Origin: Patescibacteria group bacterium
GTDB taxonomy: Bacteria; Patescibacteriota; Minisyncoccia; Phycocordibacterales; XYD1-FULL-46-19
Assembly (NCBI GenBank): GCA_048617235.1
Contig: JBMCHT010000002.1
Location: 63,899-127,898, forward strand
Direction of reading: 5' to 3'
DNA: 64,000 nucleotides
Shown piece after piece: positions 1 to 43,774 of the stretch; within the stretch, counting starts at the first letter, position 1, and each line of letters opens with the position of its first letter. The notes under the pieces are model-generated. The model made no database searches and was not told the origin of the DNA. It worked only from the letters and a program-made list of their open reading frames with translations. The translations under genes and the position numbers were made by a program.

Positions 1-2466
1 TACCCGTGATGTCTGTTGATATGACGCAGTTGCTACATTTGTTATAAGTTCATCGGCCAGAGCGTTGAGATGTTCACTATTAGTATCTGCCAGAATCTCA
101 TCTATATCACCCTTAAAGAATTCTGGGACTCGATCCCAAGCCTCACGTCTGAGAGAAAGAAACTTCTGTTGAGCAACAGAAACCCATTGTCGCAAAAACA
201 TCGCGGGTGGATAATGATGTTTTTCTTCTTCGGGCAGAATAGATTCTAACAAGGAAATGATTGAATCAGTATCCTCGTGTGAGTTATCAAGTGATGTAGC
301 GAGTGAAATAAAATCTTCTCCACTTCTATCCCAGCGATTCGACATAACTGTATCCACAAACCATCTCCACCTCTCATCCTGCGGCGCTGTTGCTTCTAGG
401 GAAGTGAAATCTTCAATGTAGTACTCGTGCGCCGCAATAGATCTGTAAGCAAGATAATCTGGAGTTCTGTTTATTAAATGTAGTAAATCTCTACTCGCCT
501 CTGTTCCTTGTGTCATGCGTGCCCAACAAAGAATGAGTAGGTTCTCAATCTTGCTGAGTTCATGAATTGATAGATTGTCTTGTTCGTTTTCGAGAAGGTT
601 CCTTATAACCTCTTTTGCCTGCCTCCTTTCTTCTGGAAAATTATTAGCAAGTGGTACAGCAGAAGCATCAATCTGTCCACGGTGAGTAGAACCTATTGAT
701 TCAATAACAGGTATTGCTAAACAAATCCGGCCAGAAACAATAAGTTCTTTCAACGCCTCCATAGCGGCACTTCTCATTTCTTGAACCTCATTAATGTTAC
801 GTAGTGCCCGTTCCCCAAAAGTCATTTTGTTGCCGTACGAGTATCCTGTTTTGTGGGAAGCTCTTAAAACTTCCGAGAGACCATCCGAAATAAGTTTAAG
901 CTCAACTGAATCAGCAGATGCAATCCTATTTCTTAACAGTTGAATACGGGAAGTGATCTTTCTTGGCCCAGAAATTAGTGGGGACATGTAATCTTGCATT
1001 AACTCAAGCGACTTATAGTTATCGTACATACCCACCTTTACTGATACGCTTATACGCAGAATTGCGCTAAAGAGAGACCCTTCTTCATTTTCAAAAGAAA
1101 TTAGACTCTTTAGAAGTGGTCCGAATGAGTCTGTAGACAAATCAAGTTCTTCTCTCTCAACGCGAGAGAGAACTGAAAAGAGAAAATCAAAACAAGTATT
1201 TGCGGCAAAGTGAGAGACTCTCGACAACCAATCAATTCGGTTTTTAATTTCCTGTATCGAAAGTCTGTCAATTTCAGTAATCCATTGTGTAACAATTGCG
1301 TTCATTGCGCCTACAACTTGGGTAGCATCGTTGTCACGATAAGCACTTCCTAGATTCCCGAAAATACGCTCGGGATTGATATTTGTCCACTCTGTAATTA
1401 GACTAGTCACTTGATCTTGAGTGAAGTTGGTCATCCGAAAGGATAGGAAAATGTCACCTATAATATCTGCGTTAAAACGGATTGTTCTACCAACTTGTTT
1501 TAACACACCTGCTCGTATAAGCCGCTTCAAGGAGTCTTCAACTACAGCAACTGAAGAGTTTGTTCTGCTGGCTAATTCCTCAAGAATCCGCGCATCCTGC
1601 TCGTTAAAACCCGAAATCATAGCCAACTGAGTCAAAAGATTTTCAATATCAAGATTGACCCCTCTCATTACTGAACGAGTATCGGACAGCACATCCTGAG
1701 TTATTCGTTCTCTAAAAGCTTGTATGTTTTCAATGGGTTCGTTTTTGAGTTTTTTACCCATTAACACAATGAGGTAAGGATTGGGGTATTCTCCCAAAAT
1801 TACCTCTTCTGCATCAATTGTCTCCAATCCAGATACTCTGTGTAAGAGAGTGCTTAATTCATCCGCTGTCCAAGAAGTAATCTCTATCTTTTCTCCCGCC
1901 GATCTCAATCTTTGTCGTGTAATTGTCTCTTCAACAAAACTCAACCCGGCCGATCTGAAAGCAAAAATGATTTTTACGTTATTTCTGCTTCTATCCCTAT
2001 TCAAAAACTTTAGAAAAGGTAGGAGCTCTTCCTCATTTTTATCAGCAGCATCATCTAAGATAATTAGATATTTTCCTCCTCTACCAATTGCTGACAATAA
2101 ATCCTCTCGCAATGGACTTCCAGGTTTTACGATGAGTATTCTTTGATCTTCCTTAAACCTAAACGACGCTTCTCTTAGTAGGTGAGACTTTCCATGACCA
2201 GCGGGACCGTATATTAAAAGAAAATCTTTATCATCTGAATCTAAAAAACTTTCGATATCAGAAAGATATCCATTGAATCTATCAATTATGGTTACTGACA
2301 AATTAGTTAATTCAGGTTCTGATTCTTTAAAGTATTGTTCTGGTGTGGCAAAAGAAGGATGATGTTTGAAAATGTAGTTAAAAAATTTACCTGTGACCCA
2401 TCCAGGAAAATACGACAACAGGTTAGATACTAGGAAGAAAAGAATTTTTGCTAGCAAGGCTTCCAT
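1..2466 (-). CDS. STAND-like P-loop NTPase, partial; the C-terminus runs off the window and at least 822 aa are visible
   Basis: I translated the reverse strand by hand from the ATG at 2466 down to position 1 and found no stop. The ORF track omits it because it is edge-truncated. It has a Walker A FLLIYGPAGHGKSHLL and a Walker B KYLIILDDAAD (hhhhDD, STAND-type), an N-terminal hydrophobic helix (LLAKILFFLVSNLLSYFPGWV), an HTH-like segment (EQDARILEELASRTNSSVAVVEDSLKRLIRAGVL) and then several hundred aa of helical repeat-like sequence. It starts 5 nt after the res stop on the same strand. Confidence 0.6.
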   Translation of the reverse strand, partial: MEALLAKILFFLVSNLLSYFPGWVTGKFFNYIFKHHPSFATPEQYFKESEPELTNLSVTIIDRFNGYLSDIESFLDSDDKDFLLIYGPAGHGKSHLLREASFRFKEDQRILIVKPGSPLREDLLSAIGRGGKYLIILDDAADKNEEELLPFLKFLNRDRSRNNVKIIFAFRSAGLSFVEETITRQRLRSAGEKIEITSWTADELSTLLHRVSGLETIDAEEVILGEYPNPYLIVLMGKKLKNEPIENIQAFRERITQDVLSDTRSVMRGVNLDIENLLTQLAMISGFNEQDARILEELASRTNSSVAVVEDSLKRLIRAGVLKQVGRTIRFNADIIGDIFLSFRMTNFTQDQVTSLITEWTNINPERIFGNLGSAYRDNDATQVVGAMNAIVTQWITEIDRLSIQEIKNRIDWLSRVSHFAANTCFDFLFSVLSRVEREELDLSTDSFGPLLKSLISFENEEGSLFSAILRISVSVKVGMYDNYKSLELMQDYMSPLISGPRKITSRIQLLRNRIASADSVELKLISDGLSEVLRASHKTGYSYGNKMTFGERALRNINEVQEMRSAAMEALKELIVSGRICLAIPVIESIGSTHRGQIDASAVPLANNFPEERRQAKEVIRNLLENEQDNLSIHELSKIENLLILCWARMTQGTEASRDLLHLINRTPDYLAYRSIAAHEYYIEDFTSLEATAPQDERWRWFVDTVMSNRWDRSGEDFISLATSLDNSHEDTDSIISLLESILPEEEKHHYPPAMFLRQWVSVAQQKFLSLRREAWDRVPEFFKGDIDEILADTNSEHLNALADELITNVATASYQQTSRV

Positions 2467-2471
2467 GGCAT

Positions 2472-4751
2472 CTAGAGTGTTAGTTTCTTACCATCTACCT
2501 TCCAACCATTTGGACCATCTTGCACCACGATACCGCCATCAAAATTCTTTTTGCCTTTTAACCAATCCTTTAGAGCTTGTTTCTTATACTGCATGTCATT
2601 ACTTTCTGCAGTAAAGCCAGCTTTAGTATCGAGAATCCAAATCTTATTTTTTGTCTTTACAATCCAGTCAGGATAAAAGAGTCGCTCACGATTTTCTGTC
2701 TCGTGATAATACGGAATGGAGAAGTATTCACTTCCAGAGTCACCGTTTTTGTACCACCACTCGACCTTGCTTGATGATTCAAGATACTTAATAAACTCTT
2801 TTTCATTTTGGACAGGTTCTTTCTGAATATAGAAAGGTTGCATTGCAGACTTTTTGACTTTCATTTCTTCATAGAGATCGGTGAAAAATAGGTATTCTCT
2901 CGGTATTTCAAGTACTTCGGTTCGACGTGTTCGTTTAGCTTTCTCTTTGACTTCCTTTTCACGAATCGGGCGATACTTTTCTAGTGTCTCACCAAGAATA
3001 GGTCGTAGTACACTATCTGGGCGGAGTAGATCATTTACAATAACTTTGTAATAATCTTCACGAGCGAGATCAAGAAGGTTAGAAAAATATACGTTCAGTG
3101 CGGTTTTCAACTTTCCCCATGAACGTTCTGGTGCAAATTTCTTATTCTCATCTTCTTGCTTGGAAATGATATTGAAACAGAGAAGATTATAGAGACGCTC
3201 CAGATCATTACGTGATATTTCATTTGAAAGCTCTGCTGTACTTTCTCTTAGCTCCTCAACGAAGTTGTCGTAGTTTTCTATCTCAGCATCAACAATAAGA
3301 CTACTTTCTACTTTCACATCAGTGACATCGAGACTTTGTTCTTTAAATTTCTTTTTTATCTGAGCTTTCGTGTCTCCATCTTTAATGCCAAGTTCTTTGT
3401 TAGCAACTTGCCTGAACGTCTTCTGGAATGAATCACCCAGGTCATTGTAGTCAGCACGACTCATGAAAACAGACTCAAGCTCTATCGGCTTAATGTCTTT
3501 CTTGCGTCGACTGATTTGTGTGGCAGGACGATTTTCTCCTTTCTGCTTATCGTACTCAGCAAGGATCTGATTCCGTTCGTAGTTTGTATATAAGTATCCA
3601 ATGTTAAGCTCGGGCATTGGATAATGAATGGCTTCTGGCATACGAAGAATTCTACCGACAGTTTGAATATGAAAGACTGGGCTTTTAATTTCTCGATACA
3701 TCACCAAAATAGCTGCACGAGGACAATCCCATCCAGTCGCGGCTGCCTGTTTGAAAACTAAAAAGTTTATCTCTGAATCACTTTTTTCAATTTCGTCTAA
3801 ATTCTCTTTGTCGTTTGAAAGCCAAACAGCAACATTATGATCTTCTTCTCCTTTATCTTTAAGGAAATCTAAAACAACATCCTTCTTTGATTTATCTAAG
3901 GTTTCCTTACGAGCCTTGTCATCATTAGGGAGCTGAACAAGTACCAGAGGATTAATATCAACACCAAGTTTTTTATAACTCTTCTTAAGCTCTAAACGCT
4001 TTGAGTATGCAAGATCAAGCAAAAGAAGATCTTGATCAATCTCTTTCTTGGCTTCTTTCTCAATATCCTCCTTAGTCTGAGTTATAACTTTTTCCTTAAT
4101 TAGACCTTCCTCTATAACCGCATCACGTTCCACCTCCACAAAACCAACCTTTTTGTTCTTCACATCAGAATATGATGGTTCTTTCTTTGGAGTGGCTGTA
4201 ATTTTAAGGATGATACGAGGATCAATCAGGTTAATAAGCTCTTGAGCCAGATCGGTACTTGCATCACGATGAGCTTCGTCAATAATCAAAACGATTTCCC
4301 GACCATCTGCTTGCGATTTCTGAATAAAAGAGTCAAAAGTAATATCGTTCTCGTTTTCTTTACGTAACTTGCGACCATCTTTTGTTGAAGTTTTAATTTT
4401 TTGCCAATTAATAAAGAAAACGCTGTTCTTTTCTAGTTTTGCGTTTCGAGTAAGGTCATTTAAATCAAGTAGTTCGATTTCTCCGGCTCCGCCATAATAT
4501 TTAAAAAGTTTTTTCTTGCTCTGCTCGTATGATTCTTCGTTGAAAGTGAACCACACAAATGCCTTATCAGCATTAAATTGTGGATCGCCTGTTAAGTCAC
4601 GCAAAAACTGAGCGGTCATTACTGTCTTTCCTGAACCAGTTGGTGATTTAAAAATAAGCTCGAGCCTACGATTTCCAGTACCCCAAAGTTCGAGAAAACT
4701 TTTTCGTAGTTCAGCTATCGCTTTTTCTTGAAAGGTTTTAAGTGTAAACAT
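2472..4751 (-). CDS. res: Type III restriction endonuclease, Res subunit (SF2 helicase plus C-terminal nuclease)
   Basis: 759 aa with helicase motif I SPTGSGKT and motif II IIDEAH, and a C-terminal PD-(D/E)xK-like WILDTK. It sits directly downstream of the mod gene. Confidence 0.85.
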   Translation of the reverse strand: MFTLKTFQEKAIAELRKSFLELWGTGNRRLELIFKSPTGSGKTVMTAQFLRDLTGDPQFNADKAFVWFTFNEESYEQSKKKLFKYYGGAGEIELLDLNDLTRNAKLEKNSVFFINWQKIKTSTKDGRKLRKENENDITFDSFIQKSQADGREIVLIIDEAHRDASTDLAQELINLIDPRIILKITATPKKEPSYSDVKNKKVGFVEVERDAVIEEGLIKEKVITQTKEDIEKEAKKEIDQDLLLLDLAYSKRLELKKSYKKLGVDINPLVLVQLPNDDKARKETLDKSKKDVVLDFLKDKGEEDHNVAVWLSNDKENLDEIEKSDSEINFLVFKQAAATGWDCPRAAILVMYREIKSPVFHIQTVGRILRMPEAIHYPMPELNIGYLYTNYERNQILAEYDKQKGENRPATQISRRKKDIKPIELESVFMSRADYNDLGDSFQKTFRQVANKELGIKDGDTKAQIKKKFKEQSLDVTDVKVESSLIVDAEIENYDNFVEELRESTAELSNEISRNDLERLYNLLCFNIISKQEDENKKFAPERSWGKLKTALNVYFSNLLDLAREDYYKVIVNDLLRPDSVLRPILGETLEKYRPIREKEVKEKAKRTRRTEVLEIPREYLFFTDLYEEMKVKKSAMQPFYIQKEPVQNEKEFIKYLESSSKVEWWYKNGDSGSEYFSIPYYHETENRERLFYPDWIVKTKNKIWILDTKAGFTAESNDMQYKKQALKDWLKGKKNFDGGIVVQDGPNGWKVDGKKLTL

Positions 4752-4753
4752 AA

Positions 4754-6394
4754 TTATTTCTTGTTAATTTCCTTGTATACTTCAAGGATCGGTTCTGGAA
4801 TATCTTCAACTCGAATATTCTTATATTCAGAAAACTCGTTTTTATACTCATTCTTGCCCCAACTAAAGATATATAGAGCTGCACTGTCAGATTTGCTGAT
4901 TTTACCAACAAGCTCGTCAAGCTTTTCTTTATCTTCTTTAAAGTAAATAGCGGTAGTTCTACCTTTCTTGTCGATAAATATCTGCCACCAGTCATTTTTT
5001 TCTCTCTCTGTGAGTGTGTCCTCTCGCAATGCAATCATACGACCTGCCTGATAGGTAAGTTCGATTTTCTTGTGGTCCGAAACATTGTGTACTGACTCAA
5101 CATCTACAAACTCTGTCTTGTAATATCGAAGGTTTGATGGGATGCCTTCTGTATTACCATATCCCTCAATTACATTCTTTATGCGTGGATATGTAATTTC
5201 TCGAGCAATACCGCCTTCATTATTTGTACACAAAATAAATTTGTGGTTCTGATTATATTTTTGATTGATTAAAGCAACAGCATGTCCTGTGGTTTCTGAG
5301 CCAGCAAAAAAATCCAACACTGTAGCGTTTTCTTTATCATAAATCACCGTTTCTAAACATTTAGCTGTTGCAAAAAGTGACTTTGGATAAGGAAACTCTG
5401 ATCCTACAATATTTTTAACCAGCATTGTTCCATACTTACCTGCATCTAATTCACCTCCAGTCCAAACTGTTTTATATCTAGCCGAAACAGCAGTAACATA
5501 CAGCTGGTAATCTCCTTTTCTTTCCTTAACTTCTATTCTCTTTACATGGTTTTCTATAGAATCTATACCAAAGTGCCATCTTCTCTCATCTCCCTTATCA
5601 TCTATTGGCCACACTTCGATCTCTCCATTATCTAAACTTTTACTTCTTTGAGATGGATGAAAATTTACATCTGGAACCTGACCTATACGAACAACTTTTC
5701 CATCTTTAACATAAATAGGAAAGAACATTGTTGGTCGATCAGTTCTATATGAGGCACGTCCAGCACGCCTTAGATTTCTTGTATCAATTTTATCCTCAGG
5801 ATTTTTGCCGATAACAGATTTACCCTTTGGAATCACAAAATGAGCATATTCATGTGATTCTGAAAAATTTCTACTTGGTAAACCTTTAGGGTTATGCTCA
5901 ATTACAATAGTAATTATTTCATGTGTTGGGAATAATTCAGCAAGAAGTATTAGCAGTGTGCCGTTTTCATATTTATCAATTGTGGCAATTAATACACCAT
6001 CATCTTTTAGAAGATTTTTGGCAATCCTAAGACGATTATTCATCATGGATATCCATTTGCTGTGGCGGAATGAGTCATTCTCATCCACGTAGTCATTATT
6101 GTATTTCCAATCCTTAGCACCTGTATTGTAAGGTGGGTCTATATAGATTAAATCTATACTCTTACGATGAGTATAATTTAAAACAGTAAGTGCGTGATAA
6201 TTATCACCCTCGATAAGCAAGTTTGTAGGTTTTTCTAGACTCTTTTCTACAATCTTTTTTTCATCCTCACTAAAAATTGGAATCTTTGTTTTACATTGTT
6301 CAACAACATCTTCTGGTTTATCTTCCCAAACCAAACCGTAAGATTTTCGAGACTCAAGTTTCTTGATCTCCTCAAGCAATTCCTCCTTATTCAT
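4754..6394 (-). CDS. mod: Type III R-M N6-adenine DNA methyltransferase, Mod subunit
   Basis: 546 aa with the DPPY catalytic motif (LIYIDPPYNTG) and a later FFAGSETTGHA SAM-binding-like motif. Its stop is adjacent to the res start. Confidence 0.85.
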   Translation of the reverse strand: MNKEELLEEIKKLESRKSYGLVWEDKPEDVVEQCKTKIPIFSEDEKKIVEKSLEKPTNLLIEGDNYHALTVLNYTHRKSIDLIYIDPPYNTGAKDWKYNNDYVDENDSFRHSKWISMMNNRLRIAKNLLKDDGVLIATIDKYENGTLLILLAELFPTHEIITIVIEHNPKGLPSRNFSESHEYAHFVIPKGKSVIGKNPEDKIDTRNLRRAGRASYRTDRPTMFFPIYVKDGKVVRIGQVPDVNFHPSQRSKSLDNGEIEVWPIDDKGDERRWHFGIDSIENHVKRIEVKERKGDYQLYVTAVSARYKTVWTGGELDAGKYGTMLVKNIVGSEFPYPKSLFATAKCLETVIYDKENATVLDFFAGSETTGHAVALINQKYNQNHKFILCTNNEGGIAREITYPRIKNVIEGYGNTEGIPSNLRYYKTEFVDVESVHNVSDHKKIELTYQAGRMIALREDTLTEREKNDWWQIFIDKKGRTTAIYFKEDKEKLDELVGKISKSDSAALYIFSWGKNEYKNEFSEYKNIRVEDIPEPILEVYKEINKK

Positions 6395-6573
6395 TTTTGA
6401 GTAATCTTTTGATATGTTATTTTAACATTAAATCACATTTAGACTTATTTTTCCATCTTAAATTTATCTCTCCAACCCTAACATTTATTGAGAAATATAA
6501 GTAATAAGTTACCAACTCTATCCTCTCCGGACGCTCTAGACTCCCCCAACCTATTCTGTCATTCCTTAGAGAT

Positions 6574-7611
6574 ATGGAAGAAATAGAGATCAAATATGTC
6601 CTCTGTGCTCGAAAGAGCTCAGAAAGTGATGAAAAACAAGCTCTCTCAATAGAGGCGCAAGTTAAAGAAATGATCCAGATGGCTGAAAGAGAGGATTTGG
6701 AGATAGTAGAGATACGTCGAGAATCTCATTCAGCTAAAGACTCAGGTAAAAGACCAATATTTAATGAACTTCTGAAAGATATTAGAGATGACAGATTCAA
6801 TGGAATAATTGTTTGGCATCCAGATAGATTAAGTAGAAATGCTGGAGATCTTGGTAGTTTAGTAGATTTAATGGATCAGAAGAAACTAGTGGAGATAAAA
6901 ACTTATGGGCAGAAATTTACCAATACTCCTAGTGAAAAGTTTCTCCTCATGATTTTATGTAGCCAAGCAAAACTGGAAAATGACAATAAAAGCGTCAACG
7001 TTAAGAGAGGCTTAAGAATGAGATGTGAGATGGGCTTGTGGCCAGCGCCGACCCCCACAGGATATTTAAATGAAAAGAGGATAGATAGAAAAGGTTATGT
7101 CTATATTGATAAAGAAAGAGGTCCGGTAATAAAAAAGATGTTTGAGAAAGTTGCTTATGAAAAATGGTCAGGTAGGAAGGTATATCATTGGCTTAAGTTT
7201 GATTTGAATTTCAAAAGTTCAACCAGTGGTAAAAACTTAACTTTAAGTAATATATACAGATTACTACAAACCCCTTTCTACTATAGTCGGTTTGAATACC
7301 CCGCTGGTAGTGGTAATTGGTACCAAGGAAGACATGAACCATTAATAACTGAGGAATTGTACCAAAAAGCTCAAGAACACCTTAAAAGAGATAGAATTAC
7401 CCGAGGAGAATCTAAAGAATTTGCTTTCACTAGATTAATACACTGTGGGTTATGCAAATCCGGAGTCTGTGCTGAAGAGAAGTTCAAAAAATTGAAATCC
7501 GGAAAAACCTTAAGGTATGTCTACTATGGGTGTAATAGATCAAAAGACAGATTCTGTAAATGTGGCTACATTCGAGAAGAAAACCTAATCAAAGACTTAT
7601 GGATCAAATAG
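6574..7611 (+). CDS. Large serine recombinase (resolvase/invertase catalytic domain, recombinase domain and zinc ribbon); the C-terminus is truncated by a frameshift
   Basis: The N-terminus YVLCARKSSESDEKQALSIEAQ carries the catalytic Ser context, followed by the recombinase domain and a Cys ribbon (CGLCKSGVC...YYGCNRSKDRFCKCG). The ORF ends at a TAG at 7609. Confidence 0.8.
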   Translation: MEEIEIKYVLCARKSSESDEKQALSIEAQVKEMIQMAEREDLEIVEIRRESHSAKDSGKRPIFNELLKDIRDDRFNGIIVWHPDRLSRNAGDLGSLVDLMDQKKLVEIKTYGQKFTNTPSEKFLLMILCSQAKLENDNKSVNVKRGLRMRCEMGLWPAPTPTGYLNEKRIDRKGYVYIDKERGPVIKKMFEKVAYEKWSGRKVYHWLKFDLNFKSSTSGKNLTLSNIYRLLQTPFYYSRFEYPAGSGNWYQGRHEPLITEELYQKAQEHLKRDRITRGESKEFAFTRLIHCGLCKSGVCAEEKFKKLKSGKTLRYVYYGCNRSKDRFCKCGYIREENLIKDLWIK

Positions 7612-7877
7612 ATGAACTAGATGTTAATGATGTGGCTGTACAGAAGAAGTTCCAAGCTGAATATACTAGAGCCAGTAGATTTCAAAAGAAGTTTTTAGGA
7701 AAAGAAAACAGTAAAGTGAAAGTGGATAATTTAGATATTAAAAGTTATATAAAACATGTGTTGATCGAAGGAACCGTTGAAGAAAAAAGAGAACTATTGG
7801 GAGAGATACAAAATAAATTAATTTTAAAAGAAAGAAAAATTATTTTGGAAAACATAAGTAACGACAGCGGCAATTAA
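7560..7877 (+). pseudogene. C-terminal coiled-coil segment of the same serine recombinase, in the -1 frame
   Basis: The 105-aa K/E-rich helical ORF overlaps the 3' end of the previous ORF in another frame. Together the two pieces are about 435 aa, typical of a large serine recombinase. Confidence 0.55.
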
Positions 7878-8768
7878 AATAATTAATACACCTATAAAAA
7901 TTTTACCGAAAGGTTTTTCATGCCACTCTTTAGATATGTTTAAAGTTTTTTTAAGAGACGTTTTTTTAAAATTATCTCCAACACCAAAATGAATTTGTGA
8001 ATTATTAATAACAGGATCTTGGTCTTTTTCATTTACAATAGCACTATTTTCAATATCATAATTATTATTGGAAACAATAGAAACATTTTTACCTCTAATT
8101 AGTAATCTCATATCCTCACAAAATAAGACATCATTCATCGAATTAACAGCCTTTATCCATTCATTTTTATCACCTTTATATATTTTTATATCCACAAGCC
8201 TCAGAACAACCTTATTTAAGTCATAATCTGAAAGCTCTTTCAAAACACCCAGAACCCAATTCTTTCTTGTAGAACCATCATGTTTTACATTTATCCCAAT
8301 CTCTTGAAAAAATTTAGTTAAATAAAAAGAAGATCTATAGATTGGAAATTTTTCTGCGTTATCTCCACATATAAAATCTGCAATATTTTCCAAAGTCACA
8401 TCATCAATATCACTTAATACGACATCGCTTTTAATAACAGAAAAATAATTATTTAACTTTTCTTTTATAAAATTAAAATCTTTTATAATTTTTACCTCTT
8501 CTTCTTGTTTATGAGAAGTTATATTTTCAATAAGATCAACAAAATCCTGGATTTTATAAACTATATTTTTAATACTTTCTAAATTTAAATTATTTAGATC
8601 AAGACCCTCAAAAGATTCAAGTGCAACATTTAATTTAAATTGCCATTCTCCATTATCACCCACATCAACAGTATCAGATAAATTTTGAAGATTCCTTTGC
8701 ATATCTTCTATTGTGGATATACAAAGTTCGTTTAAAAATATATTTTTAAATACTATGTCATTATTCAT
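7824..8768 (-). CDS. Hypothetical protein with a C-terminal TM helix
   Basis: A 314-aa ORF at about 22% GC against about 40% for the core. I recognise no motif in it. Confidence 0.5.
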   Translation of the reverse strand: MNNDIVFKNIFLNELCISTIEDMQRNLQNLSDTVDVGDNGEWQFKLNVALESFEGLDLNNLNLESIKNIVYKIQDFVDLIENITSHKQEEEVKIIKDFNFIKEKLNNYFSVIKSDVVLSDIDDVTLENIADFICGDNAEKFPIYRSSFYLTKFFQEIGINVKHDGSTRKNWVLGVLKELSDYDLNKVVLRLVDIKIYKGDKNEWIKAVNSMNDVLFCEDMRLLIRGKNVSIVSNNNYDIENSAIVNEKDQDPVINNSQIHFGVGDNFKKTSLKKTLNISKEWHEKPFGKIFIGVLIILIAAVVTYVFQNNFSFF

Positions 8769-8814
8769 AATAATTAGGCATCTCGGTCTTGCGCGATACC
8801 TCTACTTGCTCGTG

Positions 8815-8885
8815 CTGCCCGGCAGGGACTCGAACCCCGATTTCTTGGACCAAAACCAAGCGTCCTGCCATTAGACGACCGGGCA
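8815..8885 (-). tRNA. tRNA-Gln (anticodon TTG)
   Basis: Hand-folded: acceptor TGCCCGG/CCGGGCA, anticodon arm CTTGG-TTTTGGT-CCAAG, T-arm CGGGG-TTCGAGT-CCCTG. No CCA is encoded. Confidence 0.8.
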
Positions 8886-9065
8886 ATATAACTTAAACTA
8901 TACTATACCACAAACGGGTTCGAGTCAGGGACTCGGTCACAACTCTCGCTTCGCTCGGTCGCGACCCCGCCTCACAGTTGTTGTGTCGCTTCGCTCCTTA
9001 CAACATGTTCCGGCTCTGACTCTGGCACGGAAGCCAAGCAGTTGGCTTCCTACTCCGTTTCACTA

Positions 9066-9131
9066 CGTGCCCGGGTCAGCCCCTCTTCTTGGACCAAAAC
9101 CAAGCGTCCTGCCATTAGACGACCGGGCAAT
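9066..9131 (-). repeat. Degenerate partial second copy of tRNA-Gln (pseudo-tRNA or att remnant); 9086..9131 is a 46-bp perfect direct repeat of 8842..8887
   Basis: The 46 nt 'ttcttggaccaaaaccaagcgtcctgccattagacgaccgggcaat' occur identically at both sites. The second copy keeps the acceptor 3' strand 'tgcccgg' but replaces the T-arm with 'gtcagcccctc'. Confidence 0.7.
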
Positions 9132-9161: not shown

Positions 9162-9803
9162 TTACAAGTTTTCCAAACTTAATTCTTCAAATTCATCATC
9201 AAAGTAATAAAGAAAAGGACCTCGAAATTCCTGTAATAAACCTTGGGAATTATAAGGGGAAATAAAGCCAAAACCGTCTTGGTAATCAGACCATTTTAAA
9301 AGTAGAATATCTTCTAAATCTGAAGGTTTAATATTATCCCGATCCAAATCGGTTACAATGTTGGTGGCTATCGGTAATACCGCTTCAGCTTCGGCTTGAG
9401 GTAAATATGTTCTAACAGTTTCATCGGCTAAATCTTCCAAAGAGACAAAATCCGAATACTGATAAGCCAATAGATAATTATCTTGTAATAATTTTTCCTT
9501 CATCTTCGAAGAGACTTCTCTGGCTAAAGCCGGACGACTGGACAAAATAACATCCACGGCACCGGTTTTTAGTAATTGAAATGAATCCATTGAAGAGGCA
9601 GTCCTCACTTCTTCTAATCCATACTGAGATACTAATTGTCCACCGTATTTATCTATATTGGGGCAAAAAGCCAAAGACGGCTTGGAAGCTGTCAATACAG
9701 CTGCCGGAGAATATTTGGTTAAATTATTAAAATTAACAACCAAAAGTAAAACAATAATCAAAAGTATTCCGCCACTTAGCCATAAAATTTTATTTTTTAA
9801 CAT
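9162..9803 (-). CDS. Hypothetical membrane-anchored protein
   Basis: 213 aa with an N-terminal TM (ILWLSGGILLIIVLLLVV). I recognise no catalytic motif. Confidence 0.5.
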   Translation of the reverse strand: MLKNKILWLSGGILLIIVLLLVVNFNNLTKYSPAAVLTASKPSLAFCPNIDKYGGQLVSQYGLEEVRTASSMDSFQLLKTGAVDVILSSRPALAREVSSKMKEKLLQDNYLLAYQYSDFVSLEDLADETVRTYLPQAEAEAVLPIATNIVTDLDRDNIKPSDLEDILLLKWSDYQDGFGFISPYNSQGLLQEFRGPFLYYFDDEFEELSLENL

Positions 9804-36879: not shown

Positions 36880-36905
36880 TCGGCGCTTATTTAAGCGCCG
36901 AGGCA
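36880..36905 (-). terminator. Rho-independent terminator of the 90-aa ORF
   Basis: The minus strand reads cctcGGCGCTTaaatAAGCGCCgattttttt. Confidence 0.55.
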
Positions 36906-37159
36906 AACAGTCGGAAAACGAGGTAACCAAGCATCCCCGCCATCACGACCGTTATGAGTGATTCCAGCAACTCCGGTGCAAACCGGAGTAAGAACCAAAG
37001 AATTCCTAGTCCAACCAACCACGGAGTGGCCCATTGGATAAGAGTCCTCAGCCCCCGGCCAATTCCCGTCGCCACTTCCCGAATCAGGTCGGCTATCAAA
37101 CCGACCCAAAACAAACAAAAACCTCTTAAGATATTCATAGCTTTCTCCTTTCCCTGCAC
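36887..37159 (-). CDS. Small 2-TM membrane protein
   Basis: 90 aa at about 55% GC, followed by its own terminator. An alternative start MNILRG lies at 37138. Confidence 0.45.
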   Translation of the reverse strand: MQGKEKAMNILRGFCLFWVGLIADLIREVATGIGRGLRTLIQWATPWLVGLGILWFLLRFAPELLESLITVVMAGMLGYLVFRLFASALK

Positions 37160-37712: not shown

Positions 37713-38744
37713 ATGTGGGAAATTTTTGTGGGAATAATCTTGGCTATCATTCTGACTTCCCCTTTGGAGGTCTGGATTCTGGCTTCTTTCAATCTGGGCT
37801 TTACTTTCATTCGTGAGGGTGAGGCTCGGGCTGTCTTAGTTGGTGACTCATTCCATCGAATCATCATGGCCTACACTGGCCGGGTGATCCTTGAAACCCC
37901 GGTCATGGTGGCTCATTACAAACAAGCCACCGGCCACCAGGAAGCGGATTTGTGGGATATCGTCGAGGCAACAGACGATTTCCCAGAACCGGCTAAAAGC
38001 CGACTGGAGAAATGGTTCGGAATCCGGTGGTACGGCCTGCCACCGTTCCGAAAGATTTTGTCCTACTCCTTCAAGTGGACCGCTCCGGTCCATAATGAGG
38101 GTGAATCCAAAATGCGACCGAGCACAGAAACCCTGTCGCATATCTTCGTCAAAGAGACGTTGTATGCCGACAAGGTTCGGCAGGCGGAGACTTCGGAGGC
38201 ACTCCCAATGGATGTTGAGTACCGGGTTTTGCTTCGGGTCAAAAACCCTTACAAAGCCCTCTTCCAAGTCCATCGCTGGTTGGATGCCACCTTGGATGTG
38301 GTGGGATCAGCCATTAGGGAGTATATTAGTGGAAAAAAATATGAGGATCTCCTGGAGACCTCAGACAAAATTTTTTCAGAGGAAGTACTTAAAAATATCC
38401 CCGAAATCACCAACACCCGCTACGGGGTGGAGGTGCTGAATCTTCGTCTGACAGACATATCGCCGGCCTCAGCCCAAGCCGAAGAATACCGCTTGGCCTC
38501 GACCAAGAAATATGTCGAGGAGCGAGCCGGAGAGGCGGCAGAGGCTCGCGCTAAGGGTGAGTCCGAAGCCATCAAGTTGATGGGTGACGGTGAGGCCAAA
38601 GCCATCAAAGCTAAGGGCCAAGCTCAGGCTGAGGCCTGGCAGGCTCAAGTCAGCCAAGCCGGACCACCTTTGGCCGGTGCCCTCAACCAACTGGTTGAGG
38701 GAATCACCAAGGCAATAATCTCCGTCAGAAAGGGAGGAGAATAG
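37713..38744 (+). CDS. SPFH/band-7 (stomatin/HflK/C-like) membrane protein
   Basis: An N-terminal TM, an SPFH core (EYRVLLRVKNPYKALFQV...) and an Ala/Glu-rich C-terminal coiled coil (EAAEARAKGESEAIKLMGDGEAKAIKAKGQAQAEAW). GC is about 50–60%. Confidence 0.75.
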   Translation: MWEIFVGIILAIILTSPLEVWILASFNLGFTFIREGEARAVLVGDSFHRIIMAYTGRVILETPVMVAHYKQATGHQEADLWDIVEATDDFPEPAKSRLEKWFGIRWYGLPPFRKILSYSFKWTAPVHNEGESKMRPSTETLSHIFVKETLYADKVRQAETSEALPMDVEYRVLLRVKNPYKALFQVHRWLDATLDVVGSAIREYISGKKYEDLLETSDKIFSEEVLKNIPEITNTRYGVEVLNLRLTDISPASAQAEEYRLASTKKYVEERAGEAAEARAKGESEAIKLMGDGEAKAIKAKGQAQAEAWQAQVSQAGPPLAGALNQLVEGITKAIISVRKGGE

Positions 38745-38746
38745 TA

Positions 38747-39577
38747 ATGACTACGCTATTTCTTGTCTTGGGGTGGACAGCCATACTGCTCACTCTGGTT
38801 GGGGTGATTGCCATCAAAAATCGCCCTTCCACCTCCTCCAACCAAACGGAGGAGGTAGCAACCGAAACAACGAACAGTGGTAACTGGCTCGGGAGAGTCT
38901 ATCGCCACCCCGCAACTCCCTTCGTGGTAGCCGGGCTAGTCGGACTGGGGTTGTTTATCGGCTTCTGGCCCAGCGCCACTTGGCCGATAATCAAAACCGG
39001 TGCCTGGTGGCTAGCTTTGGCCACGGTTGGGTTTGTGGTCTTCGGCTATATCAACATCCCCACGGAAGCCGAGACCACCGCTTCTCGGAGGCGAGTGGCC
39101 GGGTGGTTCAGACGCTATGCAGTCTTAGCTGTTATCTTCGGCTTGTTATTCGGCTTGTGGTCCAACCACAGCCCGGTAACAGTTGAAGAGGCAGTGGAGG
39201 CTGTCGGCAACTGGTCACCGCCGACAATTTCTCTTTTTTCTTCCTCTCCTGAGAGAGGAAGAACAAGAGAAAACCGCCCCCCGGCACCTCCTCCACCACC
39301 ACCGGAGCCATTCCGAGTTGATCGGATAACGGCTCCAACCGTCGGCTGGTCCGAGAAAATCGAGTTCAACACTCGACCTTGGACCAGGAGGTTCCAACTG
39401 AAGGCCGAGGTGGCGGCGAAAGATGTACCAGTCTTGATTAAAGCCGGCGGGCGACTGATCAAGACAACCCTTAACAAGCGATCGGAGCAAAAAGAAGATA
39501 TTGGGAATGTTCCCCATCTTCAAATTCGCTCCGAGAGCGGCAGACCGTTAACGATATTGGTCAAACGATATCGTTAA
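38747..39577 (+). CDS. Polytopic membrane protein (4 TM), poly-Pro linker and C-terminal beta-rich domain; possibly an NfeD-like partner of the SPFH protein
   Basis: 276 aa starting 3 nt after the SPFH stop. Four hydrophobic helices, then PPAPPPPPPEP, then a roughly 90-aa soluble tail. Confidence 0.5.
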   Translation: MTTLFLVLGWTAILLTLVGVIAIKNRPSTSSNQTEEVATETTNSGNWLGRVYRHPATPFVVAGLVGLGLFIGFWPSATWPIIKTGAWWLALATVGFVVFGYINIPTEAETTASRRRVAGWFRRYAVLAVIFGLLFGLWSNHSPVTVEEAVEAVGNWSPPTISLFSSSPERGRTRENRPPAPPPPPPEPFRVDRITAPTVGWSEKIEFNTRPWTRRFQLKAEVAAKDVPVLIKAGGRLIKTTLNKRSEQKEDIGNVPHLQIRSESGRPLTILVKRYR

Positions 39578-42475: not shown

Positions 42476-43774
42476 TTAATCAAAAAGATTACTAATTTGA
42501 CGCCTGGCTGTTTCCAAGGCTGCTTCCGCACTCTGACCTCCAGCTGCCACTGTTTCTATCATATTCTGGAAAACACCATTTGTGGTATGAGGATCGGGAT
42601 CTAACCAAGTTCTGGCCAGTAAAGCCGACCGATAAAAAACAGACATAAAAGGATTAGAATGGCCTTGACCTAATCTGGATCGACCGGCACTCGGTAGTCC
42701 TATAGCTTCTTCCCATAAATTACTATAACGATCAGAGGCTAAAATACCAGCAGCCTTAAAAGCGGCTTGCGGATTAACCGAATTAAGATTAACCGCCACT
42801 GCATAAAAACGACCGGCAGTGGCCTTGATCGTAGCCGAACTGTTTTGAGGGAAAAAGTGTACATCCATATTTAAATTGGGATTACCACGACGCAGAGAAT
42901 CCAATTCTGAAGCAAAACCAAAATAATTAGCTAAATTACCGGACAAAAACATCTGTTTATCGTTAGGTAAAGTCCTATTCCAAGAATATTCAAATCTGTT
43001 AGTGTTGGCAAAACGAGAATAAAACTCTAAAGCGGCTCGACCTCGACTATCGGCTTCTCTATTAGTTGACCCGGTAACCAATCTATCTCCCACTTGTAAT
43101 AAAAGAGAAACTACTACATCTTTAGCGTTGGTAATATTACTATATTGCCCCATAGCCACAGCGCTTTGCTTTACCGTTAATCTATCCTCTATTATATTTA
43201 ATCTTTTTAAAACAGACTCAGCTCCGGCCGGACCGTCTATCAATTCCACCCAAGTGGCCGGCGGACCGGCCACTCCCGACTGATTATATATATCTCGATT
43301 ATAAAACATAACCAAAGGATCAACTAGTAAAGGTCGAGCTAGGGATCCTTCCTCGGTTAAAAAAATATCAAAACCATCTGCATAAGTGGTTCTAAAATCT
43401 CGTTCAGAAAAACTGGAATAAGGCAGAATCCAAAAAGTATCTCGGTACCGCCCCAACCAAGTGTCATTAATAATAATTAGATCCGGCCCTCGGCCTTGAA
43501 TTCTCTCTCTGACATAATCTTGTTCTAACTTAGACCCGGTTTTACCAACATAATTAATTTTAACCAGATTATCATTTTGGCTATTAATTACGTGAATCAA
43601 TTCGCTAACTTGAGAAGAAGGCCATGGTCCCCAAACAGTTACACTACCCATAAATTCTGTATCGGCACTTCTACCAATAGGAATCCAACCGGCGAAAACA
43701 GCCACTGCAAAAAGTAGAACACAAGCAAAAAAAACCAAAACTCCAATTTGAAAAGAATTATATTGATCTCCCAT
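42476..43774 (-). CDS. Membrane-anchored extracellular solute-binding-protein-like protein (SBP_bac_1-like)
   Basis: 432 aa with an N-terminal TM anchor, then VTVWGPWPSS...KINYVGKTG...GRGPDLIIINDTW resembling family-1 SBPs. No ABC permease or ATPase genes are adjacent. Confidence 0.4.
   Translation of the reverse strand: MGDQYNSFQIGVLVFFACVLLFAVAVFAGWIPIGRSADTEFMGSVTVWGPWPSSQVSELIHVINSQNDNLVKINYVGKTGSKLEQDYVRERIQGRGPDLIIINDTWLGRYRDTFWILPYSSFSERDFRTTYADGFDIFLTEEGSLARPLLVDPLVMFYNRDIYNQSGVAGPPATWVELIDGPAGAESVLKRLNIIEDRLTVKQSAVAMGQYSNITNAKDVVVSLLLQVGDRLVTGSTNREADSRGRAALEFYSRFANTNRFEYSWNRTLPNDKQMFLSGNLANYFGFASELDSLRRGNPNLNMDVHFFPQNSSATIKATAGRFYAVAVNLNSVNPQAAFKAAGILASDRYSNLWEEAIGLPSAGRSRLGQGHSNPFMSVFYRSALLARTWLDPDPHTTNGVFQNMIETVAAGGQSAEAALETARRQISNLFD

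Follow-up and report, generated by a model that had tools for sequence, protein, structure and literature searches.

A repeated tRNA-Gln 5' part in a Patescibacteria genome flanks the likely remains of a structured element that follows tRNA genes

Introduction

Why should a working tRNA-Gln gene lie 244 nt from a flawless copy of its own 5' part? The question is raised by a 64-kb stretch of a Patescibacteria metagenome-assembled genome (MAG; GenBank assembly GCA_048617235.1, contig JBMCHT010000002.1, positions 63,899 to 127,898). We call this whole stretch the window; all positions below are window coordinates, and the tRNA-Gln locus lies on the minus strand. A sequence-only reading had described a tRNA-Gln followed by a truncated, T-arm-less second copy, with scrambled tRNA-like fragments between the two, and had taken the arrangement for a scar of repeated integration and excision at the tRNA or for a duplicated att site. 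We argue for a different answer. Leaving aside how the 46-nt duplication itself arose, we consider it reasonably probable that the locus is a decaying pair of modules, each composed of a tRNA-Gln gene and an element, here termed the tRNA-tail element, that follows tRNA genes in many Patescibacteria.

Results

The two copies of tRNA-Gln

ARAGORN and Rfam (58.6 bits, full length) agree on a single tRNA-Gln(UUG) at 8814/8815..8885 (-). This intact copy A (8814..8885, minus strand), with a T arm and an acceptor as in 22 other Patescibacteria, is the working gene. Its positions 1-44 and the 2 nt upstream of them make up one copy (8842..8887) of a direct repeat, R, whose other copy (9086..9131, likewise on the minus strand) is identical over all 46 nt, that is, over tRNA positions -2 to 44. 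The repeat search places the copies 244 nt apart with a 198-bp spacer between them, and since no further match of at least 14 nt to the repeat region exists elsewhere in the 64-kb window, the repeat is far beyond chance. The second copy of R is the 5' part of a defective tRNA-Gln, copy B (9067..9129, minus strand), delimited by its alignment to copy A. B continues as GAGGGGCTGACCCGGGCACG, in which the acceptor 3' strand CCGGGCA is kept and the T loop TTCGAGTCC is absent, with small changes at positions 45-47 and in the acceptor 3' strand. The sequence-only reading was correct on the perfect repeat, on the retained acceptor strand and on the loss of the T arm, and the tRNA search that it had proposed returns one gene; its order has to be reversed, as the partial copy B precedes the intact gene A when the locus is read on the tRNA strand.

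In its bacterial mode ARAGORN calls no tRNA at copy B. In the metazoan-mitochondrial mode it reports a 63-nt "TV-loop tRNA-Gln(ttg)" at 9129..9067, for which a T-arm-less cloverleaf can be drawn. As in the TV-loop mitochondrial tRNAs, B has an acceptor, a D arm, an anticodon arm and a replacement loop of 11-13 nt; it differs from them in being bacterial, in occurring in one genome only and in having an intact paralogue 244 nt away. To our knowledge, T-arm-less tRNAs are confined to metazoan mitochondria, where they depend on a dedicated EF-Tu. Between a pseudogene and a TV-loop tRNA, B is most likely the former, and we are quite sure that it does not work as a T-arm-less tRNA.

The genome being a MAG, the repeat might occur only once in any single genome, with the 198-bp loop placed between two copies by the assembler, as an artefact or out of a strain mixture. 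An independent k=31 assembly (Logan) of run SRR11308339 breaks exactly at the repeat ends, with contig L002 ending at 9086 and contig L003 starting at 8842, and direct joining of the two would give one intact tRNA. Breaks of this kind are also what a real two-copy repeat longer than k would give, strain heterogeneity being another possibility. A 46-nt repeat is shorter than the larger assembler k-mers and the reads, so that its junctions must be read-supported, and the spacer carries, as described below and correctly oriented, just the type of element that a tRNA-Gln of this clade should have behind it, which would be unexpected for a chimera. These arguments make an artefact very improbable.

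A family of structured elements behind tRNA genes

The spacer has 55-60% GC against 36.6% for the window, and together with the trailer of the tRNA it forms a GC-rich island. It holds no credible open reading frame (ORF) and no recombinase gene. The first lead to its nature came from two hairpins capped by GAGCGAAGCGA and from several blocks that match the GC-rich region behind the tRNA-Gln of L140 (loci used for comparison are given as L numbers). Blocks identical to those of the spacer are found in both L140 and L146, and the helix GGUCGCGAC/GUUGUGACC differs from its L140 counterpart by a compensatory C-G to G-C swap, with two G.U pairs kept. GC-rich tails stand behind tRNA-Gln in L133, L134, L136, L142 and L149 as well. 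A tRNA-independent core pattern derived from those tails, AAAGACGGAR-N20-50-GAGYCCGGGYAGGAG, occurs at 52 metagenome loci (L151-L202).

These loci define a family. The unit is a structured element of 130-170 nt, present in many Paceibacteria-like Patescibacteria at about 70 loci beyond the window. Of 57 units, 43 stand immediately behind a tRNA gene of the same orientation, with the motif starting 57-88 nt past that gene, and the upstream tRNAs represent 22 anticodon types. The canonical order is 5' arm, GAAAGACGGAG, hairpin P2, CGAGUCCGGGYAGGAG, hairpin P3, CUGACRCC and 3' arm. The 3' arm, X, directly repeats the tRNA sequence that starts at C56 and extends a few nucleotides past the 3' end, and the 5' arm, X', is the complement of X. 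Two 5' layouts can be distinguished, class 1 with a terminator-like hairpin between the X of the tRNA and X', and class 2 with a short linker and a hairpin H with a CTGC-type loop; the cores fall into a canonical subtype and a type B. The arms track the neighboring tRNA: over 15 nt the 3' arm equals its cognate tRNA in 21 of 32 non-redundant units (mean 13.7/15, compared with 8.0 for non-cognate tRNAs), the identity always starting from GTT|C (T55|C56), and the 5' arm makes 8.4 Watson-Crick pairs of 10, compared with 5.7 for non-cognate tRNAs. The core is a conserved three-way junction with invariant junction sequences.

We described the fold by two covariance models (CMs), R1 for canonical units and R2 as a broader model. 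R1 recovers 68 units, including L133, L134 and L140, which were not in the seed. In the alignment of these 68 units 92.4% of the cells are paired (74.5% in shuffles), double changes are seen in 23 of 27 pairs, and the covariation score of 0.464 compares with 0.166 for shuffles, none of 500 of which reaches it, and with about 0.05 for slid partners. G.U pairs outnumber A.C pairs by 62 to 33, and by 26 to 4 in Px and P3, which places the fold on the tRNA-sense strand, as RNA or as single-stranded DNA.

The family is apparently undescribed so far. Literature searches by motif string and by topic found no description of it, the one related paper dealing with group I introns at position 35/36 (PMC13011429), and Rfam searches at E<=10 of the locus and of canonical units returned only tRNA and spurious microRNA or hairpin matches. 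Likenesses of the core to the RNase P CR-I/L15 elements (GUCCGGGC, CCGGGUAGG), to the hammerhead (CUGA, GAAA) and hairpin ribozymes, to group II domain V (GAGCCGGUAUAC) and to the box C/D K-turn, bridge RNA and T-box were tried and rejected, as the core has its elements in an order that does not agree and is matched by none of the Rfam models. Protein clustering around 59 family loci yielded no recurrent transposase, integrase or reverse transcriptase; only housekeeping clusters recur, and mobile genes are absent near most units. Nothing in IMG/VR points to a phage-borne form, since exact searches there for the canonical core, the type-B core, the B junction and repeat R were all empty (0 matches each).

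On a carrier contig most tRNA genes are followed by a unit. Five contigs (L201, L195, L196, L159 and L168) have at least two units each, tandem arrays with identical periods occur in L186 and L159, and L168 contains composite modules, type B then canonical, behind one tRNA. In L173 (1450-1706) the unit stands behind a decayed tRNA-Ala 3' end (CTCCTATAGTCCAC) with no callable tRNA, the tRNA of the related L183 being intact; besides the window, L173 is thus another locus where a dead tRNA precedes a unit. In L146 (593-2272) a CYTH-domain gene and a DUF5677 gene separate the tRNA-Gln from a type-B unit, in whose 3' arm the end of the tRNA is repeated; a unit can accordingly delimit a small cargo of genes on the side away from the tRNA. 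In L169 and L198 the tRNAs that lie about 250 nt ahead of the units are not recognized by ARAGORN and contain stretches (GAGACTATCC..GATGATATAGTCC) with the look of group I introns.

The 11-mer GAGCGAAGCGA, a GCGAAGC mini-hairpin with flanking G.A pairs, caps many P3 loops of the family. In the window it is found at 8996..8986 and 8956..8946 (-) and nowhere else. Pairs of it spaced 15-45 nt apart occur in at least 120 IMG/VR contigs (L004-L123), where chance would give fewer than one, and 28% of 345 occurrences have a directly flanking stem of at least 4 bp, against 2% expected. GCGAAGC hairpins have been linked to phage origins and N4 promoters (review, PMC13037366). We found no paper in the literature that treats the 11-mer as a motif.

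The unit in the spacer

Read against this family, the spacer contains one unit, U1 (~9050..8926), which begins 16 nt past pseudo-tRNA B on the minus strand, in the same downstream, same-strand position as in the family. All its parts are on the minus strand. The linker GTAGTGAAACGGAGTA between B and hairpin H (9051..9066) corresponds to class-2 linkers (L172, L177; that of L172 has CACGAACGAAGTGAGTGAAAGGAGG) and to the tRNA-Gln trailers of relatives (CACGTAGCGGTAG in L127). It is followed by hairpin H (9029..9050; GGAAGCC-AACTGCTT-GGCTTCC, as a whole GGAAGCCAACTGCTTGGCTTCC), a class-2 5' hairpin with a CTGC-type loop, and by the 5' arm GTGCCAGAGTCAG (9016..9028). The type-B core (8936..9015) consists of AGCCGGAAC (J1/2), P2 GTTGT..ACAAC, GAGGCGGGGTCGCGAC (J2/3), a minimal P3 C-GAGCGAAGCGA-G and TTGTGAC (J3/1), and leads into the 3' arm CGAGTCCCTG (8926..8935), a truncated direct copy of tRNA C56-G65.

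Two hidden Markov models (HMMs) built with the window excluded support this assignment. The class-2 hairpin HMM, from 10 metagenome units, has its only significant window match at 9055..9021(-) (E 4.4e-4); the type-B core HMM, from 8 units and with the junctions GCCGGAG and GAGSCGGGGTCGNGA, J2/3 GAGCCGGGGTCGCGA and J3/1 TTGTGACC, has its only significant window match at 9007..8921(-) (E 0.0015). The two matches are adjacent and colinear, on the tRNA strand and within the spacer. A weak HMM match at 43279..43233, inside a 432-aa ORF, was judged to be chance. The best window match of CM R2 is again the spacer (9036..8916(-), 11.8 bits, E 0.17 over the whole window and 0.0011 within the intergenic region); the canonical-only R1 does not match the spacer. 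In the window the order starting from the CCCGGGCA of B is that of L172 and L177, namely tRNA 3' end, linker, hairpin H, 5' arm and core, and because class-2 loci have the linker and hairpin H directly after the tRNA 3' end, CCCGGGCA is best read as the acceptor 3' strand of B itself. An earlier interpretation of CTGACCCGG as an inverted acceptor arm of the element was revised; TGCCCGGGCA is a perfect palindrome.

U1 is damaged. In minimum free energy structures its 5' arm no longer pairs with its 3' arm, and the P1 pairs between these arms are flagged as non-canonical in the CM alignment, so that the closing helix of the family is broken. The 3' arm covers only C56-G65, where other members extend from C56 to the 3' end, and runs directly into an inverted piece of the T arm: the direct piece CGAGTCCCTG occupies 8935..8926, and at 8925..8916 comes ACTCGAACCC, complementary to tRNA 50-59. 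We read the whole inverted piece, ACTCGAACCCGTTTGT (8910..8925, minus strand), as tRNA ~59 to 42 inverted; it resembles the 5' arm of "b-type" units in L149, L142b and L140a. The 3' arm still matches the true tRNA, unlike the 5' arm. The latter, with bases 9029 and 9015-9012 (CGTGCCAGAGTCAGAGCC), makes a 14-bp pairing with the decayed 3' end of B (GGGGCTGACCCGGGCACG) across the deletion junction of B, as would fit if the inverted repeats had changed in concert or if this hairpin were under selection. The z-scores for folding, from -2.3 to -2.45, are modest.

With the damage taken into account, we hold with high confidence that U1 is a diverged type-B member of the family. The sequence-only reading had rightly seen T-loop-like pieces in both orientations in the spacer. 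What had appeared scrambled is instead a set of built-in arms and hairpins that belong to a conserved structured element.

The locus in relatives

We compared relatives with tRNA positions 8-44 as the query, one genome per species; the source genome lies outside the GTDB representative set. In all 22 Patescibacteria species with an identical 8-44 stretch the tRNA is present as one copy with a normal T arm. The T-arm-less form is found in none of these 22 species and in neither L125 nor L127; it is unique to the source genome and not a conserved feature. The sequence-only reading had held that the tandem arrangement, if conserved in distant relatives without adjacent mobile genes, would speak for a functional duplication. 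The exact arrangement is seen in 0/22 species, whereas the element in its spacer is kept in distant relatives without mobile genes.

Gene order shows which copy occupies the original site. To the right of the locus (upstream on the tRNA strand) lie a lineage-specific ORF (9162-9803), whose product equals an NCBI protein of a "Patescibacteria group bacterium" at 100% identity, and dnaX, dus and an amidase gene. The DnaX protein has closest relatives of only ~50% identity; the amidase-dus-dnaX order is shared with L124 and L125, and dus-dnaX alone with L127/L128. In L125 and L127 dnaX is followed by one gene and then by a single tRNA-Gln(UUG). In L001, which has an ORF 45% identical to ORF 9162-9803, the tRNA-Gln starts 37 nt past the homologous stop. 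As the repeat copy beginning at 9131 starts 32 nt past the stop of ORF 9162-9803, copy B is at the ancestral tRNA-Gln position. The L001 contig ends at tRNA position 23.

Upstream and downstream of the intact gene

Copy A has an AT-rich, promoter-like stretch of its own on its 5' side (8888..8915, minus strand), which can be read as TTGTGG-17 nt-TATATT, or with TATAGT, and which resembles the upstream regions of L001 and L127; a consensus promoter scanner made no call there. On its 3' side is a GC-rich trailer (8769..8813, minus strand) that contains GCAAGTAGAGGTATCGCGCAAG and is homologous to the start of the L134 trailer.

After the trailer, 45 nt past the tRNA 3' end on the minus strand, begins a low-GC island (1..8768 in the window), delimited with Pfam and the L003 gene table. 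It is 10.6 kb long, with its far end ~1.8 kb beyond window position 1. Next to the tRNA it carries an unknown ORF (7824-8768), then a large serine recombinase split by a frameshift (6574-7611, plus strand), an N6/N4 methylase (4754-6394), a Res III protein (type III Res subunit, 2472-4751) and a STAND NTPase that runs off the window, the last being a 1146-aa nSTAND protein in L003. The type III restriction-modification pair and the nSTAND NTPase make this a defence island. Unknown ORFs of 314 and 217 aa are also located in it. The serine recombinase region, 6574-7877(+), reads as a 345-aa ORF and an overlapping 105-aa ORF in both assemblies, and is either a frameshifted pseudogene or a case of programmed frameshifting. 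In L127 and L128 a different restriction-modification system (Bsp6I-like, with a LexA-fused methylase) comes straight after tRNA-Gln.

A second unit of this genome, U2, lies where the island ends, ~1.8 kb to the left of window position 1 (L003 10655-10800). It comprises a terminator hairpin AAGCTCCGATGCGGAGC (AAGCUCCGAUGCGGAGC), a 5' arm CTTTGTTCCGCCGGGGACGAG (CUUUGUUCCGCCGGGGACGAG) and AAAGACGGAGGC, laid out as in L134, and is a truncated unit of the canonical type. U2 breaks off after AAAGACGGAGGCTGTGTAT, and a 10-nt repeat, GGCTGTGTAT, flanks a 37-nt AT-rich stretch, as if a further small insertion or deletion had taken place. Farther on, L003 10860-11019 contains AGGTGGCACCGCGATC, similar to a T-box antiterminator motif, which suggests a T-box leader downstream of the island.

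The 64 kb contain 12 tRNA genes, and searches with R1 and R2 found no intact unit behind the other 11. It looks as if the host lineage is losing the element family. Elsewhere in the window, 37713-39577(+) is a 1.8-kb stretch of 57-63% GC in a 37% GC genome, with two ORFs, one of the SPFH/Band 7 type and one without a Pfam match, and a GC-rich small ORF (36887-37159) lies between tRNA-Leu and tRNA-Lys.

Origin of the locus

The structural basis of the locus can now be considered. In the reading that we favor, two tRNA-Gln modules would once have stood in tandem. Module 1 would be copy B, the upstream tRNA at the ancestral position, with U1 directly behind it. Module 2 would comprise copy A, the AT-rich stretch on its 5' side, the trailer, the terminator hairpin and U2; the trailer would formerly have run straight into the hairpin and U2, between which the 10.6-kb serine-recombinase island now lies. 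Copy B would have been disabled in its 3' part by deletion of the T loop, a part prone to deletion or to hairpin-templated conversion because it forms inverted repeats with the 5' arm of the unit. The identity of the 46-nt 5' block would result from recent homogenization by copy A, or from copying of A. The direct and inverted tRNA-derived repeats of such modules would drive rearrangements of this kind, and recombination between the 46-nt copies would delete U1 and restore a single gene. Apart from the live tRNA, the present locus probably has no function.

Several observations weigh against this history. The tandem-module ancestor is one that we infer and have not seen, and two tRNA-Gln(UUG) genes at this locus are present in no relative examined. 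The difference between U1, of type B and class 2, and U2, of canonical type and class 1, is too great for a recent tandem duplication. The CM score of U1 is weak (11.8 bits, E 0.17) and its closing helix P1 is broken. The five or more differences between B and A all fall in positions 45-72, with none in 1-44; five changes placed at random would give so sharp a 44/45 boundary with an expectation of ~0.8%, so plain neutral decay is insufficient and gene conversion or a recombination junction must be invoked. Finally, in L124, the closest DnaX relative, the same genomic slot has a different truncation: a 21-nt piece of the tRNA-Gln 5' end (AATGGTAG) is followed by non-tRNA sequence (TCGCCTCTTCGGCGACCCGCCGA) and the contig end (6880-6927). 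The process may thus be recurrent. A simple tandem duplication of the whole 244 bp can be rejected, as the flanks of one copy are not significantly similar to those of the other (similarity reached in 344/500 shuffles downstream and 82/500 upstream).

The sharp 44/45 boundary would be well explained by integration. A small module (promoter, tRNA-Gln 1-44, a decayed 3' end and a unit), as a circle or within a larger element, would have recombined into the chromosomal tRNA-Gln in a Campbell-type event within the 46-nt identity block, with RecA or a trans-acting recombinase as the agent. This would leave the 5' part of the chromosomal gene upstream, joined to element DNA, and the promoter of the element would now drive the intact gene. 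In agreement with this, the upstream surroundings of B are still those of the chromosome, as are the 3' trailer, terminator and U2 that go with A, and the upstream region of A is more promoter-like than that of B. The identity of tRNA-Gln 8-44 in 22 species offers ready homology, the L124 and L001 contigs end or break inside the tRNA-Gln 5' part, and the CYTH and DUF5677 genes of L146 demonstrate that cargo is possible between a tRNA and a unit. Against it, no free or elsewhere-integrated copy is found (no exact match in IMG/VR, no second copy in the window), the 244-bp unit has no recombinase, and a circle of 244 bp would be very small. The only nearby recombinase is the split serine type, outside the repeats, and this type neither needs nor creates long repeats; we know of no serine recombinase that makes long direct repeats.

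Known att duplications at tRNAs offer a comparison. As in the islands of tyrosine integrases and in CIME-type (cis-mobilizable element) remnants, which keep their att sites but lack an integrase, a partial direct copy of a tRNA bounds foreign-looking DNA; the canonical family repeat, from the T loop (C56) past the tRNA 3' end, has the classic T-loop sublocation, and in L146 and the window island the cargo is likewise between the tRNA and a distal repeat. The differences are several. tRNA-targeting integrases are said, in work by Williams from 2002, to duplicate the 3' part of the tRNA, and the window repeat is the 5' 44 nt, not a part running from the anticodon or T loop to the 3' end. Some 70 units have no associated integrase, and the serine recombinase of the window (6574-7611) lies outside the repeats. 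One core stands behind 22 anticodon types with matched arms, which a single attP could not achieve, and the family also has the tRNA end in inverted form and covaries in the manner of RNA, with G.U pairs. The suggestion of an integration scar or att site in the sequence-only reading holds to the extent that mobile DNA is adjacent, the island starting 45 nt past the tRNA; it fails in that the repeat is the 5' part, the spacer has no recombinase and the island is on the other side of the gene. We consider integration an unlikely origin.

The perfect 46/46 identity could also reflect selection. B and U1 would then be a working RNA gene, a T-arm-less tRNA-Gln-like domain fused to the element, with selection on the acceptor, D arm and anticodon arm; the chimera might mimic tRNA or offer a handle for processing. 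Positions 1-44 are kept without any difference and the 3' part is changed, the 14-bp complementarity between the B 3' end and the U1 5' arm spans the deletion junction as if maintained, ARAGORN -mt draws a TV-loop fold for B, and the whole 330-nt stretch is GC-rich in an AT-rich genome. B and U1 could even be still in use as a chimeric tRNA-like RNA. Yet this form occurs in none of the 22 related species nor in the other relatives examined, P1 of U1 is broken and its 3' arm truncated, U2 is broken too with no intact units behind the other 11 tRNAs of the window, the folding z-scores are modest, and T-arm-less tRNAs are otherwise metazoan-mitochondrial. We regard such a chimera as quite improbable.

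A last alternative is an intron or split gene, whose spacer would be removed at the RNA level so that the 5' half of B is joined to a 3' half. Group I introns are common in Patescibacteria tRNAs (PMC13011429), and the units in L169 and L198 lie behind tRNAs that look intron-containing. The published insertion site is 35/36, in the anticodon loop (PMC13011429), and the break here is at 44/45. An intact tRNA is already present downstream, the intron would have to hold a second copy of positions 1-44, and Rfam gives no group I or II intron signal at E<=10 at the locus. We give this explanation practically no credence. Decay of two modules of tRNA-Gln and tRNA-tail element remains the account that we prefer.

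Discussion

The locus is of interest chiefly for what its spacer represents. Our tentative proposal, on which we are nearly but not quite evenly divided, is that the spacer is a fossil of a new class of structured RNA or single-stranded DNA that rebuilds the acceptor/T-stem helix of its own tRNA around a three-way-junction core set exactly at T55|C56. It might act as an RNA that mimics tRNA, as an element for processing akin to a ribozyme, or as a mobile element with target-templated arms. For the family our best guess is either a structured RNA of tRNA origin or a selfish repeat; it would share a transcript with the tRNA that it mimics, or be processed in the same manner.

Known systems share some of these features, but none known to us accounts for the tRNA-matched arms, the invariant junctions and a join placed exactly at T55|C56. 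Like miniature inverted-repeat transposable elements (MITEs), repetitive extragenic palindromes (REPs) and bacterial interspersed mosaic elements (BIMEs), the units are short and non-coding, occur in many copies per genome in carrier lineages, have terminal inverted repeats, form tandem arrays and encode no protein of their own. They differ from these in arms that vary and copy the 3' end of the neighboring tRNA, in a position fixed at ~64 nt behind the tRNA on the same strand, and in an inner 100-130 nt that forms a conserved three-way junction.

Transfer-messenger RNA (tmRNA), YrlA, viral tRNA-like structures and mascRNA likewise have an acceptor and T stem as the closing helix and a large domain that replaces part of the cloverleaf, and by analogy the units could be handled by RNase P and the 3'-end enzymes. 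In tmRNA it is the anticodon arm that is replaced, in the family the T loop; and unlike other tRNA-like RNAs the family has one unit per tRNA gene, mimicking its own neighbor, with no Rfam model that matches.

The topology in which 5' and 3' arms close two inner hairpin domains is that of the retron msr-msd, and as with the TnpB right-end RNA (reRNA), to which the IscB omega-RNA can be added, the sequence beside a conserved scaffold is set by the flanking target. The family has no adjacent reverse transcriptase, TnpB or IscB and no sequence or Rfam similarity to these systems, and its arms pair with each other and are not free guides; Pfam searches of the window show no reverse transcriptase gene near U1.

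Considered alone, the window shows ordinary genome decay, in the form of a defunct tRNA copy and an eroded repeat. Its spacer, in turn, led to a widespread tRNA-linked family with strong covariation, arms that track the 3' end of the neighboring tRNA and an exact T55|C56 junction, for which R1 and R2 are concrete models for a census. If the units act as RNA, they would mimic tRNA in a new way, in organisms whose machinery for RNA processing is reduced. If they are selfish DNA, they would represent an integrase-free way to target or copy tRNA tails. Either way, the family accounts for GC-rich tails and partial tRNA copies that would otherwise be annotated as integration scars or pseudogenes.

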